DNA of 64,000 nucleotides from Ostreococcus lucimarinus (taxonomy: Eukaryota): the NCBI GenBank assembly GCA_000092065.1, contig CP000583.1. One strand, written 5' to 3'. Numbering within the stretch: position 1 is the stretch's first letter; the number at the start of each line of letters is the position of its first letter. A program made the position numbers and the translations under genes. Under the pieces are notes generated by a model. The model was not told where the DNA came from, made no database searches, and worked only from the letters and a program-made list of their open reading frames with translations. Of this stretch, positions 28,568-34,914 are shown piece by piece.

Positions 28568-29010
28568 GCGATTGCAGACGCTTCCCGTAGCTGTAGCCCC
28601 AGTTCCCGCGACGCGCGCGCTTTGTAACGCCACGTCACGTTCGTTCTAAAACCCTCTCACCGCATCGAGCGCGCGCGAATCACGACCCGTTCCGTCTCGC
28701 GCCGCGGATCCCCGCGCCGACGCCGCGCGCCGCGGCGGACCCGAGCCTCGCGTTCGCCCCGCGTCCCGGTCTCAGACACCCGGAAAACGCCCGACCCCAT
28801 CTTGCGCGCGCGCCCGCCGCCATCCGCCGCCGCACCGCGCGTCGTCGTCCGCGCGCGAATCAGCGCCGACGAAGGGAGGGTTTAATCGCTCGCGCCCGCG
28901 CCCGCCGTCGTCGAGCGCTCCGCGCTCTCCTCGCGCTCGAACGCGCGCGCGCGCGCTCGAGGGGGCGTCGACGTCGTTTTATCGCCGGCTCGACCGCGAC
29001 GAGGATAAAC

Positions 29011-30231
29011 ATGGCGACGGAGGCCACGGTCGAGGTCGACGCCGCGATCGCGCGCGATAAAGCGGTGAAGGACGCTTCGTTGGAGGCGTGCGAGAAGAAA
29101 TGGGGCGAGACGGCGTCGATCTTCGAGTACGGGAGCGCGGCGAATCCGGACATGAGGCCCATCCCGGTGCTCGTGCACCCGCCGGATTTGCACGAGCGCG
29201 GAGAGACGCGAGTGATCCCGTTTGATATCAATGATTTCTTGGAGATTGAGGAATCGTGTACGTCGCCGAATCTCATGGCGTCGTTCGTGAGGATCGTGAA
29301 GGGGGAGGCGATCGAGACGAGCGCGAACGCGACGAGTCAGGCGTTTTACGTGATTCGAGGGAACGGAACGAGCGAGGGCGAACACGGTAAGATTTCGTGG
29401 AGCACCGGGGATTTGTTCGTCGTGCCGGTGACGAGGGGGAAGATTCACCACGTGTGTGTCGATGCGGAGTCCATGGGTGGGGCCGCGCTGTACTGGGTGC
29501 ACGATGAACCCCTGATGAGCTACCTGGGCGTGAATCCGTCGAGCGAGAAGAAGTTTGAACCGACGCTGTATCGCCGTGAGGAGATGCTCGCGCGCGTCGA
29601 AGAAATCAAGCACGCGAGCGACCGCAGCAACAACCGGTGCGGTGTGTTACTCGGCAATACCGCGTGCTCGCAGACAAAGACGCTCACGCACGTTTTGTGG
29701 TCTCTGTTGAACTCGATTCCGGCGCAAAGCGTACAACGTCCGCACAGACACAACTCCATCGCCCTCGATCTCGCGGTCGCGGCGAAGCCGGGAGTGTACA
29801 CGCTCATGGGCAAGGAGATCGATCGCAACGGATTCATCATCGATCCCATTCGTTGCGACTGGGTCCCGGGCGGCGTCTTCATCACGCCCCCTGGGTGGTG
29901 GCACTCGCATCACAACGAGAGCGACGACGTCGCCTGGGTGTTGCCCATGCAAGACGCTGGTCTGTACACCCATCAGCGCACCTTAGACATTCGATTTGTC
30001 GATGACGAAATCGCTCTTCATGCTGAGGGTAAAATTCGAGGCAGCGCCTTCGCTGTGACGAACAAGCAGTACTTGCAACTCGCCCAAGTTGGCGGCTCGG
30101 TGCCGACGCCCAAGGGTGAGGCGGCCATGAAGCGCGTGCTCAGTGTCGAGTGCATGAGCATGCATGGCGACACGAAGCGCGCGCGAGCGACACAAATCGG
30201 CTCCGCCATCACGTCCCCGACCAAGGAATAA
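29011..30231 (+). CDS. Bicupin dioxygenase-like protein (gentisate 1,2-dioxygenase-like cupin family)
   Basis: 406-aa ATG ORF with two cupin-like halves and His-rich metal-site context (QRPHRHNSIALDLAVAAKPGVYTLMGKE...GVFITPPGWWHSHHNESDDVAWVLPMQDAGLYTHQ). Confidence 0.7.
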   Translation: MATEATVEVDAAIARDKAVKDASLEACEKKWGETASIFEYGSAANPDMRPIPVLVHPPDLHERGETRVIPFDINDFLEIEESCTSPNLMASFVRIVKGEAIETSANATSQAFYVIRGNGTSEGEHGKISWSTGDLFVVPVTRGKIHHVCVDAESMGGAALYWVHDEPLMSYLGVNPSSEKKFEPTLYRREEMLARVEEIKHASDRSNNRCGVLLGNTACSQTKTLTHVLWSLLNSIPAQSVQRPHRHNSIALDLAVAAKPGVYTLMGKEIDRNGFIIDPIRCDWVPGGVFITPPGWWHSHHNESDDVAWVLPMQDAGLYTHQRTLDIRFVDDEIALHAEGKIRGSAFAVTNKQYLQLAQVGGSVPTPKGEAAMKRVLSVECMSMHGDTKRARATQIGSAITSPTKE

Positions 30232-30343: not shown

Positions 30344-31657
30344 CTACTTCCCAGGCAGCTTGACGCGAAAACAAACGAAACTGAATACCATCATCAACGC
30401 GCACAGCCCAAGCAACACTCGATCGCTCGATCGACTGGCAACGAGCAACAACGCGACGACCAAGATGTTGAGCGGGATCCGGAAAGCGCTCGTCATGGTC
30501 GCTCGCATCTTGTTCGGCACGTACTTTGCCCGTAGTATGGACATCACGGGCCAATAAATCCCCAAACCGAACTCAAACGCGCAAAACGCGGCGAGTGTGA
30601 CCCAATACCCCGTGAACAACACGGCGATGGAAAAGCTGACGGCGGAGCCCACGAGAACCATCCGCAGAAGATTCTCGGCGGGAATCCTAGCCTCCAGCAC
30701 CTTGAACGCCTGGCTTCCGAACATTTTACACACCATGAACGCGCTGAACACGGATCCGTATGGCACCGTGGCGTCTATCGCCGACCTTTTCTCTAGAACT
30801 GGCGTCCATACGAAGACAAAGAGATGCAACGCGCCTTCGTAGAGAGAATTCGCCGCACCGAGGCGAAACAACTCCACCGAGCTCATAATCATTCTCACCG
30901 CACTAGAGATGCTCACCGCGCCGACTTGCGTATCATCGACCGCGGATGACCCTGGCGCCCCCAAATTTGCCGCGCTCGTCCGATTACTCCATAAAAACTT
31001 CGCCCCCGCGGCGCACAGCAACAGCGACAAGGCGCCGACGTCAAACGCCGGCGCGTACACGTTCTTCGACATCATCACCACGCTTCCTGACGTATCCGCC
31101 TCCGCCCCCATCTCGAGCCTAACCTCGTCCATTCCAATCCACGAGAACTGGCTCGATTCAGCGAATTCAACGACAAAATTCCCCACCAATCCCGCCAGCA
31201 CCGCGCTCGCCCCGTTGAACAACGTCGCCACGCTAAACACTCCCGCCAACTTTTTCCTATCGATCCCCATCGCGTCCGCCTCCGTGATCACCCACGACTC
31301 AAAGTTTGTAAACAACAACGAATACGCAATCCCCCCGAGTATCCGGCTCGCGATCAGCGTCGTCATCGCGCTCGACCGCAGCAACAAACAGCTCGCCGCG
31401 TACAGCGTCCCGTACGCCACCGCGAGCGCTCGGTGCCCGCGCGTGTCCCCGAGCGCGGCGCACGTCGTCCCGATCGTCGCGCTCACGACGTACCCGAGCA
31501 CGTATATGTATCCTATCTCTCGTTTCACCAGTCCGTGTCGGCGGTAGGCGGCGTACAGGTACGCCCCTTGGATCCAATCTCCGAACGTTCCGAGCGCGTA
31601 CACGGCGACGTATCTTCGGACGAGCGCGGCGTCGCTCGCGAGGCGAGGCGAGTTCAT
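30344..31657 (-). CDS. MFS_5 family transporter (molybdate-anion transporter MOT2 / MFSD5-like)
   Basis: N-terminal signature GTFGDWIQGAYLYAAYRRHGLVKREIGYIYVLGYVVSATIGTTCAALGDTRGHR is typical of MOT2/MFSD5, and the protein has about 12 hydrophobic segments. Confidence 0.8.
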   Translation of the reverse strand: MNSPRLASDAALVRRYVAVYALGTFGDWIQGAYLYAAYRRHGLVKREIGYIYVLGYVVSATIGTTCAALGDTRGHRALAVAYGTLYAASCLLLRSSAMTTLIASRILGGIAYSLLFTNFESWVITEADAMGIDRKKLAGVFSVATLFNGASAVLAGLVGNFVVEFAESSQFSWIGMDEVRLEMGAEADTSGSVVMMSKNVYAPAFDVGALSLLLCAAGAKFLWSNRTSAANLGAPGSSAVDDTQVGAVSISSAVRMIMSSVELFRLGAANSLYEGALHLFVFVWTPVLEKRSAIDATVPYGSVFSAFMVCKMFGSQAFKVLEARIPAENLLRMVLVGSAVSFSIAVLFTGYWVTLAAFCAFEFGLGIYWPVMSILRAKYVPNKMRATMTSAFRIPLNILVVALLLVASRSSDRVLLGLCALMMVFSFVCFRVKLPGK

Positions 31658-31967
31658 GGCGATGCCCTTGAAGTTGACTACGCCGACCGACGGCGAGGCG
31701 ATCGAGCGCGGCGAAGTGAAGTCACGGCGCGATGGCGATTCGAGCGCATCGCCCGGGCGTCGGCGCGCGCGCCGGGCGACGCGCTCGCGAGGGACGCGCC
31801 GAGGGGACGATCGACGCGCGATGCGGACGTGGAACTCGCGAGACGAAGCGCTCGGGATGTGGTCTGAGTTTTGTTGATTCGAAAATCGTTTTTATTAAAA
31901 TGCAATCTTCTAAGTTGGTAGAGAGACGAGTTGGTAGAGAGACGACGCGAGAGCGACGTCACGCACG

Positions 31968-32612
31968 GTGAACCGCTTAGTAGAAGCCGAAGCCCTTGGC
32001 CGCGTTGGTGAGGACGTTGGAGTGAACCGGGTCCGCAACGTGGGATTGCCAGTTGGCGATCGGGCCTTCTTGGGTGGCGAGCGCTTGGAAGATGCAGCCC
32101 AACCACGCGAACATGGACAAGCGGCAGTGCTTGAGCTCCTTGATCTTGAGTTCTTCAAGGTCGCCAGACTCGGCGAGGCCGAGCGGGTCGAAGCGTCCAC
32201 CCGGGTTGACGTCACCGACGGTGAGGCCATCATCGAACGGAGAGTCGGAGATACCGGTACGGTACGCTTCCGCGGCGCCGACGAGAACGATCTCGATGAT
32301 GAGAACGTTCCAGAAGGACGGGTAGCCAGAGCCTTCCGGCGCGAGCGGGGCGACGGCGCCCGGGAACTTGTCCGCGACGGCGGTGCAGTCATCCGGGGTG
32401 CACAAGGTACCCGCGGTGAACCACGGGATGCCGGTGCCGTTTTCGGCGGCCCACGCACCGGTGACGCCAAGCATCGCCCAGCGGCCGTGGATCACTTCAC
32501 GCTCGGCGTTCTTTTCGTCGCCGAACGGGATGATCGGGGATTCGCCACCGCCCGGGTAGGTACCGAATTCCGGGTAGATGTCAGCCTTGACCGTCGTGGA
32601 GACAGACTTGGC
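31968..32612. repeat. Inverted repeat arm A (LHC exon 2 + 9 nt of 3' flank); the identical partner is 33979..34623
   Basis: Identical translated strings in both orientations in the ORF track (e.g. MIHGRWAMLG..., MNRLVEAEALGRV..., MSATAVQSSGVHK... each occur twice). Direct comparison shows identity through the exon, with divergence ~10 nt past the stop. Confidence 0.85.
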
Positions 32613-33152
32613 CTGCGATCGAACGAAGTTTATATTCTCCAGTCAGTCTCGTCGTCTCGTGATCGCGCACGCCCATCCGTCGTCGTCCGCCGACGCGCCC
32701 GCCGCTCTAAAAAGTCTGTTCCCCCCCCGATCCACGTTTTCACGGTTCACGACTCGTGCCGACCCCCATCCGCGGCGATAAGAGCGAAACCGTATCTCGC
32801 GCGCGGCGTCCCGCCCGATCGCCCGCGTCGCGCGCGCGTCGCCCGCGACCGACGCCTCGACCCCCGACGTCGCGCGACGCGCGCGACACATTTCCAGCAT
32901 CCACCGCGCGCCGTCCCGCGCCCGTCCGCGCGACACCGCCCGCGCGAGGGCGCCGCGCGCGATCGCCCACCGCGATCGATCGCCCGATCGTTCGTTCGTT
33001 CGTTCGACGCGCGCGCGTCGCGTCCCTCGCGCGCGTCGTCGTCCCGCGCGTCGTCGCGCGTCGCGCGAAGGCTAAAAAATACGCACTTGGATCTTGGTCG
33101 CCTTGAAGGCGGCGACGCGGCCGACGAAGGAGGAAGCGAGAAGGGCAGACAT
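31977..33152 (-). CDS. Light-harvesting chlorophyll a/b-binding protein, copy A; 2 exons on minus strand: 33087..33152 (MSALLASSFVGRVAAFKATKIQ) and 31977..32612
   Basis: Exon 2 AKSVSTTVKADIYPEFGTYPGGGESPIIPFGDEKNAEREVIHGRWAMLGVTGAWAAENG...GGRFDPLGLAESGDLEELKIKELKHCRLSMFAWLGCIFQALATQEGPIANWQSHVADPVHSNVLTNAAKGFGFY* has the LHC helix-1 and helix-3 signatures. The 474-nt intron runs GTGCGT...GAGACTGACTGG...CGCAG. Confidence 0.85.
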
Positions 33153-33488
33153 TACGACTGAGTGTGCGTGAATGCCGCGCGCGGCGCGCCACCGGTGGCG
33201 GTCGAGGCGCGCGCGCGGGCGCGGCCTCGCGGCGAACGAGATCTTCCGTGATGGGCGAAATACGGCGTGGAATGCGTGAATATCTCGCGATCGGGGTGTT
33301 TTATGTTTTATGCGTCGCGGCGCGCGCGATCGAGATCGCGATCGACGCGTTCGGGTTCGCGCGTCGCGCGCGATCGATCGTGCGTCGATCGATCGCGCGA
33401 TCGATCGATCGATCGATGGCGCGCGATCGATGGCGCGCGATCTCGCGCGCGCGCGCGAGCGGCATACCTGCACACGCACATTTCTACA
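33153..33488. promoter_or_regulatory. Shared divergent promoter / 5' UTR region of the head-to-head LHC gene pair, containing a (CGAT)n/(CGCGATCGAT)n microsatellite at about 33340..33430
   Basis: The region between the two divergently oriented ATGs is centred on CGCGCGATCGATCGTGCGTCGATCGATCGCGCGATCGATCGATCGATCGATGGCGCGCGATCGATGGCGCGCGATC. The two 5' UTRs are similar but not identical. Confidence 0.5.
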
Positions 33489-34614
33489 ATGTCTGCCCTT
33501 CTCGCTTCCTCCTTCGTCGGCCGCGTCGCCGCCTTCAAGGCGACCAAGATCCAAGTGCGTATTTTTTAGCCTTCGCGCGACGCGCGACGACGCGCGGGAC
33601 GACGACGCGCGCGAGGGACGCGATCGCATCGCGCGCCATCGATCGACGGCGTGAGATACGCGACATCGCGCGCGCGGCGCGCATCGCGTCGTCGCGACGC
33701 GGGACGTGCGACGCCGCGAAGGGCGTCGCGGGAAGCGATGTCGATGATTATTTGTGATCGCGACGCGACGCGCGTCGGCGTCGCGACGCGTCGCGACGGG
33801 CGAGCGGGCGCTCGATCGCCGCGGCGATAGGATAACCGCGATACGGATATTTTCTATCTGTTTGTTTGACTGGACGAAGCGCGGGCGCGGGGCGGAGGAC
33901 GCGGGTGATTGGATCGATCGTTCGAGCGAAGAGAGGAGACTGACGAAAGAAACGCGATGTGTTTTACGAAATGAACAGGCCAAGTCTGTCTCCACGACGG
34001 TCAAGGCTGACATCTACCCGGAATTCGGTACCTACCCGGGCGGTGGCGAATCCCCGATCATCCCGTTCGGCGACGAAAAGAACGCCGAGCGTGAAGTGAT
34101 CCACGGCCGCTGGGCGATGCTTGGCGTCACCGGTGCGTGGGCCGCCGAAAACGGCACCGGCATCCCGTGGTTCACCGCGGGTACCTTGTGCACCCCGGAT
34201 GACTGCACCGCCGTCGCGGACAAGTTCCCGGGCGCCGTCGCCCCGCTCGCGCCGGAAGGCTCTGGCTACCCGTCCTTCTGGAACGTTCTCATCATCGAGA
34301 TCGTTCTCGTCGGCGCCGCGGAAGCGTACCGTACCGGTATCTCCGACTCTCCGTTCGATGATGGCCTCACCGTCGGTGACGTCAACCCGGGTGGACGCTT
34401 CGACCCGCTCGGCCTCGCCGAGTCTGGCGACCTTGAAGAACTCAAGATCAAGGAGCTCAAGCACTGCCGCTTGTCCATGTTCGCGTGGTTGGGCTGCATC
34501 TTCCAAGCGCTCGCCACCCAAGAAGGCCCGATCGCCAACTGGCAATCCCACGTTGCGGACCCGGTTCACTCCAACGTCCTCACCAACGCGGCCAAGGGCT
34601 TCGGCTTCTACTAA
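33489..34614 (+). CDS. Light-harvesting chlorophyll a/b-binding protein, copy B (identical protein to copy A); exons 33489..33554 and 33979..34614
   Basis: Same exon sequences as copy A in inverted orientation. The 424-nt intron runs GTGCGT...GGAGACTGACGAAAG...GAACAG, and only its first ~65 nt match the copy A intron. Confidence 0.85.
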
Positions 34615-34623
34615 GCGGTTCAC
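33979..34623. repeat. Inverted repeat arm B (partner of 31968..32612)
   Basis: See arm A. A second short inverted pair covers exon 1 plus the first 65 intron nt (33022..33152 vs 33489..33619). Confidence 0.85.
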
Positions 34624-34914
34624 CGCCTTGGTAGCTTCGTCATAGGGTAGCTTGATCGGCGGCCGTCGACTTCGCGTCTACGGTCACCTCCAAGATTTCT
34701 CTGACAGCGCTGGGAATTCCCGACTGCTTTTGGGGCTTTGTCTCTTCAATAACATTCGTTTTAATGATGCATCTCTCGATGTTTGATTACTCTTCGCCTC
34801 CGCGTCGCCGTCGCCGCGCTCTGGATAGCCCGCAGACGCGCGTCCCGGCATCTTGCCCCACACACGCGCGCGCGCGTTCCCTTCGCCCCCGTGGCCGGAT
34901 CGAACGCGAAGAAC

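Follow-up and report, generated by a model that had tools for sequence, protein, structure and literature searches.

The Lhcb1/cab and RBCS genes of plants and green algae occur as near-identical copies that encode the same mature protein, are often adjacent, sometimes lie in divergent orientation, and cluster by species. LHCII genes also cluster species-wise, and the plant pattern has been read as differentiation after the divergence of species (PMC2323573). In fungi, duplicated ribosomal-protein genes undergo concerted evolution, and cDNA donors have been inferred there since only the coding sequence (CDS) is homogenised (PMC6993855). Here we analyse a 64,000-nucleotide stretch of the Ostreococcus lucimarinus genome (GenBank assembly GCA_000092065.1, contig CP000583.1; hereafter the window, numbered from its first letter) that contains two head-to-head Lhcp2 genes for a prasinophyte light-harvesting protein, identical in their exons and dissimilar almost everywhere else. 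We consider it highly probable that this locus is an ancient head-to-head Lhcp2 pair evolving in concert via recurrent, DNA-templated gene conversion. A search of the literature available to us found no paper on gene conversion among Mamiellophyceae Lhcp genes, or on exon-confined blocks, head-to-head synteny, or moving intron boundaries in them.

A repeat search of the window identified two inverted-repeat pairs, each with 100% complementarity: a 650-nt pair (31966-32615 and 33976-34625) that spans exon 2 of two divergently oriented genes, and a 136-nt pair (33018-33153 and 33488-33623) that spans their first exons, giving 786 nt of perfect identity between the copies. Each 650-nt arm consists of 11 nt of 3′ untranslated region (UTR), the whole of exon 2, and 3 nt of intron, and each 136-nt arm of 1 nt of 5′ UTR, exon 1, and 69 nt of intron. 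The plus-strand copy, which we call the LSMT-side copy, begins with an ATG at 33489 and is modelled as exon 1 (33489-33554, 66 nt), an intron of 424 nt (33555-33978, GTGCGT...AACAG, with a branch-point-like CTGAC at 33940-33944), and exon 2 (33979-34614) ending in a TAA stop; the minus-strand or MFS-side copy is modelled as exon 1 (33152-33087, 66 nt, the start of the transit peptide), an intron of 474 nt (33086-32613, GTGCGT...CGCAG, with CTGAC at 32632-32636), and an exon 2 (32612-31977, 636 nt including the TAA stop) equal to that of the plus copy. Both CDSs are 702 nt long and encode a 233-residue product, with no difference between them.

Identity between the copies thus extends from 1 nt 5′ of the ATG to 11 nt 3′ of the stop codon, and within the introns is limited to 69 nt at the 5′ end and 3 nt (CAG) at the 3′ end. 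The intron interiors, the 5′ flanks, and the 3′ flanks of the two copies yield no convincing alignment; measured against dinucleotide shuffles, a weak leftover similarity persists between the intron interiors (z = 4.3), and the flanks score no better than chance (z = 1.8 and 0.9). An earlier sequence-only reading of this locus had described two inverted genes with base-identical exons, differing intron interiors (474 versus 424 nt) and differing flanks, 3′ flanks that part about 10 nt past the stop, and a (CGAT)n-containing spacer of about 340 bp between the genes. That description is accurate (the ATGs are 336 nt apart and the array lies at 33371-33417), and pairwise alignment, in which the intron interiors are not identical, gives no cause to retract it; a shared stretch at the 5′ end of the intron is also present as described, except that its length is exactly 69 nt rather than about 65.

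The evidence for concerted evolution comes from related genomes, in which copies are alike within a genome and differ between genomes. Synonymous divergence (dS) is zero within the window pair, within the pair of O. tauri, among the 4 copies of M. commoda (distributed over two chromosomes, 3 of them identical and 1 with 2 nonsynonymous differences), and within the pair of a reef Micromonas. Between genomes, the window differs from O. tauri at 26 CDS sites (nonsynonymous divergence, dN, 0.012; dS 0.124), all of them common to both copies, and from M. commoda at 94-96 sites in exon 2 (dS 0.63), while M. commoda differs from the reef Micromonas, whose own copies are identical to each other, at 9 fixed sites (dS 0.06). 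Every one of these between-genome exon differences is common to both paralogues of a genome, and in the comparisons with O. tauri and M. commoda most are synonymous. The identity blocks of O. tauri measure 682 nt at 100% and 123 nt at 94%, its two CDSs being identical, and the two M. commoda pairs show exon-confined identity over 713 + 89 nt and 653 + 89 nt. In the window, in O. tauri, in M. commoda, and in a further Ostreococcus lineage about 6% diverged from the window (lineage B, contigs L044 and L046), the tracts have abrupt edges with unrelated sequence beyond. Since the duplication is old (see below) and identity follows the species, the copies evolve in concert; and since the tracts are abrupt, gene conversion is the process we favour. 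The suggestion that conversion is ongoing and essentially confined to the exons is therefore borne out, with dS of zero within genomes and the differences between genomes shared by both copies.

Selection alone might be proposed instead, extreme purifying and codon-usage selection holding both copies at one optimum with no exchange between them. Synonymous conservation is indeed high across genera, and the exons are nearly invariant between lineages that are some 6% diverged overall; yet the 26 exon sites that separate the window from O. tauri, and the 94-96 that separate it from M. commoda, are mostly synonymous and are all found in both copies, neutral intron substitutions are also common to both copies, and parallel fixation of all those changes is not credible. 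We regard selection without exchange as extremely improbable. A localised synonymous-constraint element in exon 2 was also entertained and rejected, synonymous conservation being high but evenly spread.

The duplication itself predates the divergence of O. lucimarinus and O. tauri, because synteny is two-sided and the 3′ flanks match by position. Specifically, i) on chromosome 3 of O. tauri the gene order is RPL5, cupin, MFS, Lhcp, a second Lhcp in opposite orientation, and a Rubis-subs-bind gene, and contig L044 ties the plus side of the window to the same Rubis-subs-bind gene, so that the O. tauri order matches on both sides; ii) the MFS_5 transporter gene downstream of the minus copy (30344-31657, minus strand) serves as a synteny anchor, being kept in the same place and orientation in both O. 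tauri and M. commoda; iii) between O. lucimarinus and O. tauri, 3′ flanks matched by position align with z = 14.4 and 12.1, as against z = -0.5 and 2.3 for the cross-paralogue 3′ flanks; and iv) the lineage B introns are 93% (plus copy) and 89% (minus copy) identical to the position-matched introns of the window, and about 69% identical crosswise. On this evidence each copy, with its own flank, was already in place before O. lucimarinus and O. tauri parted.

M. commoda has two head-to-head Lhcp pairs, one adjoining the orthologous MFS gene and the other an alpha-amylase gene; in the MFS-side pair the minus copy is followed by MFS_5 on the same strand (50-58% amino acid identity by tblastx). 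Judging from this MFS-side synteny, the pair probably goes back to the ancestor of both Ostreococcus and Micromonas. On the other side of the M. commoda pair, synteny was looked for and not found.

A very recent inverted duplication, with too little time for the copies to diverge, would account for 100% identity across 786 nt and had been put forward in the sequence-only reading. It would also predict that introns, UTRs, and promoter match, yet these are at or near chance similarity; moreover, a syntenic pair is present in O. tauri (on both sides, with 3′ flanks position-matched at z of 14 and 12), in lineage B, and in M. commoda, and flanks and introns are orthologous by position across the lineages. 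Comparison with related loci thus makes the pair, which is shared with O. tauri, older than the species split, and we consider a recent duplication very improbable indeed.

The most far-reaching form of our reading is that the MFS-side pair is a single ancestral locus, homogenised continuously from genomic DNA donors since before Ostreococcus and Micromonas separated, with occasional flipping of a cassette as a possible side effect; for this proposition we see the balance as even. If true, it would place the pair among the longest-lasting cases of concerted evolution for a nuclear protein-coding pair, at the family level in Mamiellales, and would provide a natural system in which moving tract edges in a neutral intron point to a genomic DNA donor rather than cDNA. 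The flip in question is that crossing-over between the inverted 650-nt arms may occasionally invert the 1.36-kb cassette of promoter, first exons, and introns. Some short-read contigs that join the plus intron to the MFS flank hint at such an event, but all 3 spanning contigs, two of them (L044 and L046) from lineage B, keep the reference orientation, and the joins of plus intron to MFS flank are probably chimeras.

Several points weigh against the reading of an ancient pair kept alike by conversion. No conversion event has been directly observed, the argument being comparative throughout; 91 of the 178 degenerate invariant codons are the same across five taxa from three genera, and because synonymous constraint is so strong, some identity between paralogues would be expected even without conversion; the synteny in M. 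commoda is on the MFS side only, which makes a date in the common ancestor of Ostreococcus and Micromonas weaker than the Ostreococcus-wide claim; for other family members the view is limited to environmental contigs, several of these being chimeric; and the UTR of the minus copy is in none of the 6 environmental transcript contigs described below, a scan for its 3′ UTR having returned genomic contigs only.

The protection proposed for the first 69 nt of the intron, which lie inside the exon 1 tract, is the one unusual element of the earlier reading, and it can be put to the test because lineage B is close enough to the window for the introns to be aligned position by position. Between O. lucimarinus and lineage B, exon 1 differs at 1/66 sites in the LSMT-side copy and 1/66 in the MFS-side copy, and exon 2 at 0/636 and 2/636, respectively; intron nucleotides 1-69 differ at 6/69 and 7/69 sites (9-10%), and the rest of the intron at 25/356 and 47/405 (7-12%), as compared with 0-1.5% for the exons. 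Within each of these two lineages, the changes at the 5′ end of the intron are common to both copies. The extent of intron identity also varies from lineage to lineage: exact identity covers 69 nt at the 5′ end and 3 nt at the 3′ end in O. lucimarinus; in lineage B the first 61 nt match between the copies, which then show one mismatch and remain alike to about nucleotide 82, with 3 nt at the 3′ end; in O. tauri the exactly identical portions are 11 nt at the 5′ end and, at the 3′ end, 35 nt that take in the branch point; in M. commoda (L010) the repeat arms include about 5 nt of the intron 5′ end and about 49 nt of the 3′ end; and in the reef Micromonas about 80 nt of the intron 3′ end are co-homogenised.

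The 69-nt segment is thus homogenised but not protected, because it diverges as fast as the rest of the intron; it is neutral conversion-tract spillover from the exon 1 tract, with a boundary that has moved between lineages. The sequence-only reading had instead seen here a protected intron 5′ element, a notion that the 9-10% divergence in lineage B and the different placement of the spillover in O. tauri and Micromonas contradict. A selected functional element, be it an intron enhancer or a splicing or regulatory RNA, would fit the identity of the segment between the copies and its unchanged presence in strains L023 and L002, and also its location close to the promoter, a position from which intron enhancers work in other green algae; against it, divergence from lineage B equals that of the rest of the intron and lies far above that of the exons, and in O. 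tauri, Micromonas (M. commoda among them), L014, and the paralogue at the BRCT locus only the first 7-13 nt beside the splice donor are conserved. The segment is CG-rich, low-complexity sequence, and an Rfam search of the introns and promoter returned only matches far below the gathering scores, most of them on the self-complementary (CGAT)n array. Such an element is, in our estimation, very unlikely. A CTGAC branch-point-like motif is found 35-45 nt upstream of the acceptor in all introns examined. Introner elements of the Micromonas type were considered for the intron interiors and rejected; within the 64-kb window the interiors match only short, CG-rich, low-complexity stretches.

The same segment speaks to the nature of the donor: because these 69 nt of intron sit inside the tract, the donor contained an intron. 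Lhcp genes are very highly expressed, as multiple metatranscriptome contigs also suggest, and homogenisation is nearly confined to the CDS while bridging an unalignable intron, both of which might favour conversion templated by cDNA or mRNA, spliced transcripts serving as repair templates so that exon sequence alone is homogenised. This is the published model for ribosomal-protein genes (PMC6993855). It is, however, difficult to reconcile with an intron that is co-homogenised in every lineage examined (69, ~82, 35, ~49, and ~80 nt), or with intron substitutions shared by the copies, which need an intron-containing donor. Homogenisation of only 1 and 11 nt of the transcribed UTRs, despite a 3′ UTR of at least 214 nt, is a weaker objection, since a non-homologous recipient would block transfer in any case. 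Intron spillover thus argues against a cDNA donor as the sole route here, and we judge that route unlikely.

How conversion could leave such edges may be pictured as follows. New mutations would be overwritten through exchange, both from one inverted copy to the other and with Lhcp2 genes at other places in the genome, and two separate homology blocks would so remain identical, one made up of exon 1 and its surroundings, the other of exon 2. Conversion could start and be resolved only in stretches of remaining similarity; in the exons that similarity would be maintained by purifying selection, with strong selection on codon usage in a very highly expressed gene as part of it, whereas the unconstrained intron interiors, UTRs, and promoter halves would have drifted beyond recognition and become barriers that stop the tracts. 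The razor-sharp block edges at the CDS boundaries would then follow, because the diverged sequence outside the exons acts as a barrier. We infer, rather than observe, the molecular route (homologous-recombination repair with the paralogue as template), its frequency, and the part played by dosage or codon selection.

Perfect repeats invite the suspicion that assembly or polishing has homogenised two merely similar copies, and 650-nt repeats do break or mis-join short-read assemblies: most short-read contigs from this locus stop about a k-mer's length inside exon 2 or are joined to wrong partners, the expected effect of such a repeat, and many chimeric contigs were met. The architecture is nonetheless the same in 3 independent spanning contigs. 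L023 (44 kb) is colinear with window positions 34670-27342 at 98.6% identity, both 650-nt arms being at 100% and the introns showing 0 and 1 differences from the window, and it varies in the flanks and the intergenic microsatellite; L044 and L046 from lineage B are 94.4% identical to the window, colinear, and of the same architecture and orientation. The same pattern is found in the finished O. tauri and M. commoda genomes, and an artefact is barely conceivable.

Mis-joined contigs can nevertheless mislead. Contig L009, with 21 differences from the window in the first 171 nt of exon 2 and 0 in the last 465, was entertained as a mosaic conversion tract and rejected. Its 5′ part encodes the exact N-terminus of Bathycoccus Lhcp2 and aligns to Bathycoccus through an AT-rich intron, and its junction falls on an 86-nt run of exon 2 (window 34150-34235) that is base-identical in O. 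lucimarinus and Bathycoccus prasinos. By these alignments (L009 1-1115; L058 4031-5148) L009 is an inter-genus chimera that switches from Bathycoccus to Ostreococcus at the 86-nt run. Other contigs (L001-L008, L043, L048, and L052) join the plus intron to at least 4 different 3′ flanks (among them BRCT, alpha-amylase, MFS, and FtsH) or are folded back over the inverted repeat; additional loci bearing the plus intron, or an inversion isomer, were set aside as a reading of them, given that L023, L044, and L046, which span the pair, are in accord with the window, and these multi-flank contigs are probably chimeras across the 650-nt repeat.

The comparison of L023 with the window revealed some variation outside the pair. 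A perfect 16-nt tandem repeat (AGTTGGTAGAGAGACG, 2 copies) occupies 31913-31945 in the 3′ flank of the minus copy, and a block of changes with an indel falls exactly there (31923-31938). Further out, the spacer at 28568-29010 is about 10% different and a cupin-like open reading frame (29011-30231) 2.6% different, as against only 0-0.08% for the RPL5 (L11e) and MFS genes beside it; this spacer and the cupin-like frame form a local hot spot of strain divergence.

As to what the genes are, the 233-residue product matches Pfam Chloroa_b-bind (PF00504; E = 1.2e-24, 88 bits against a cut-off of 22.3) and is letter-identical to at least 4 O. lucimarinus proteins (ABO95040.1, ABO95332.1, ABO96997.1, and ABO99981.1), entries that bear the name 'prasinophyte light harvesting complex, chlorophyll binding'. 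Its 90% cluster also includes Lhcp proteins of O. tauri and Bathycoccus, and the best named match in a broad search was an M. commoda 'prasinophyte specific chlorophyll a/b-binding protein' at 90% identity. Both genes are thus assigned by homology to Lhcp2, the major chlorophyll a/b antenna protein specific to prasinophytes. Ostreococcus is known to have several copies of the genes for its major antenna (PMC2323573), the Micromonas list comprises LHCP1, LHCP2.1-2.7, LHCP3, and LHCP4, with LHCP2.1 and LHCP2.2 indistinguishable where RNA-seq reads map (PMC5344333), and structural work on Lhcp trimers of O. tauri has been published (PMC10097422). The window genes are already annotated members of this Lhcp2 multigene family of Mamiellophyceae (Ostreococcus, Micromonas, and Bathycoccus), from which they do not differ at the gene level. 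The neighbouring MFS protein is found in many marine metagenomes, including Tara Oceans assemblies, a spread that fits an abundant Ostreococcus.

A second Lhcp2 locus (NADAR, ANAPC8, Lhcp2, BRCT) is kept in all three genera, as seen in contigs from Ostreococcus (L045, L047, and L049-L051), Bathycoccus (L053-L060), and Micromonas (L014 and L015-L022). It has one Lhcp2 gene in Ostreococcus, Bathycoccus, and one Micromonas lineage, and a head-to-head pair in another (reef) Micromonas.

Six short environmental contigs contain an uninterrupted 702-nt open reading frame for exactly the window protein. Four of them (L034, L035, L036, and L038) start at 33464-33480, jump from exon 1 to exon 2, and run on through the plus copy's own 3′ flank as far as 34780-34828, so that the modelled splice of the plus copy is confirmed by environmental transcripts and its intron, which transcripts might have shown to be retained, is removed. 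These contigs give the plus copy a 5′ UTR of about 10-25 nt and a 3′ UTR of at least 214 nt (34615-34828), only the first 11 nt of which are common to the minus copy. Of the other two, L033 carries the 3′ UTR of the BRCT-locus copy, which shows that the Ostreococcus gene at that locus is transcribed, and L037 the 3′ UTR of a copy with no assigned locus. A transcript-derived protein of a relative (P0001), 97% identical, also spans the splice junction.

Between the two genes lies a divergent intergenic region of 336 nt (33153-33488). A motif resembling GCATTCCTGCACAC stands 10-30 nt upstream of the ATG in every Lhcp2 copy examined from Ostreococcus and Micromonas. The GCAT(T/A)C..GCACAC motif is found in the window at 33461-33478 (plus) and 33159-33176 (minus), as well as in L039, L010, L011, L014, L015, and L005, and the 5′ ends of the environmental transcripts (33464-33480) coincide with it; it probably represents an element of the core promoter or start site that the Lhcp2 family has conserved. 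The (CGAT)~12 array at 33371-33417 varies between environmental strains, with changes at 33416-33432, and the 342-nt intergenic region of O. tauri is without it; the array behaves, in these comparisons, as a variable, lineage-specific microsatellite rather than a conserved promoter element. No k-mers of 7 nt or longer are common to the intergenic regions of four species. The sequence-only reading had proposed a shared bidirectional promoter, and the geometry, with head-to-head starts less than 1 kb apart and the two motifs near the transcription start sites about 285 nt apart, makes this plausible; each gene has a conserved start-proximal motif of its own. The word AATATCT, resembling the core of an evening element, occurs once in the intergenic region (33279-33285) and was not found in the M. 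commoda pairs or in the reef Micromonas.

We wish to be clear about what this locus adds. The process is the classical and well-known one, and the pair is a clean but ordinary example of it; it opens no new biological question, and its importance is modest. Its value is that of a teaching-grade case: a neutral intron edge with lineage-specific changes common to both copies allows conversion to be distinguished from recent duplication, selection alone, and repair templated by cDNA. It also sounds a warning that species-wise clustering of light-harvesting paralogues need not mean independent duplication, and it illustrates a practical hazard, in that identical exons break or mis-join metagenome assemblies, as in the Bathycoccus/Ostreococcus fusion L009.

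Set beside known systems, the pair resembles the Lhcb1/cab and RBCS families in having near-identical copies that group by species and not by locus, but differs in that positional orthology across species is directly shown, which makes conversion separable from independent duplication. With the duplicated ribosomal-protein genes of fungi (PMC6993855) it has in common high expression, a dS between paralogues far below the divergence of the introns, diverged flanks, and long duration; unlike them, its intron ends are co-converted with shared substitutions, which points to genomic DNA donors. Finally, as in the mammalian pairs subject to long-lasting conversion (PMC2720389), the paralogues have remained closer to each other than to their orthologues over long periods and in defined stretches, although the organisms and genes are different, and the copies described here form a 2.7-kb inverted pair in a compact haploid genome.

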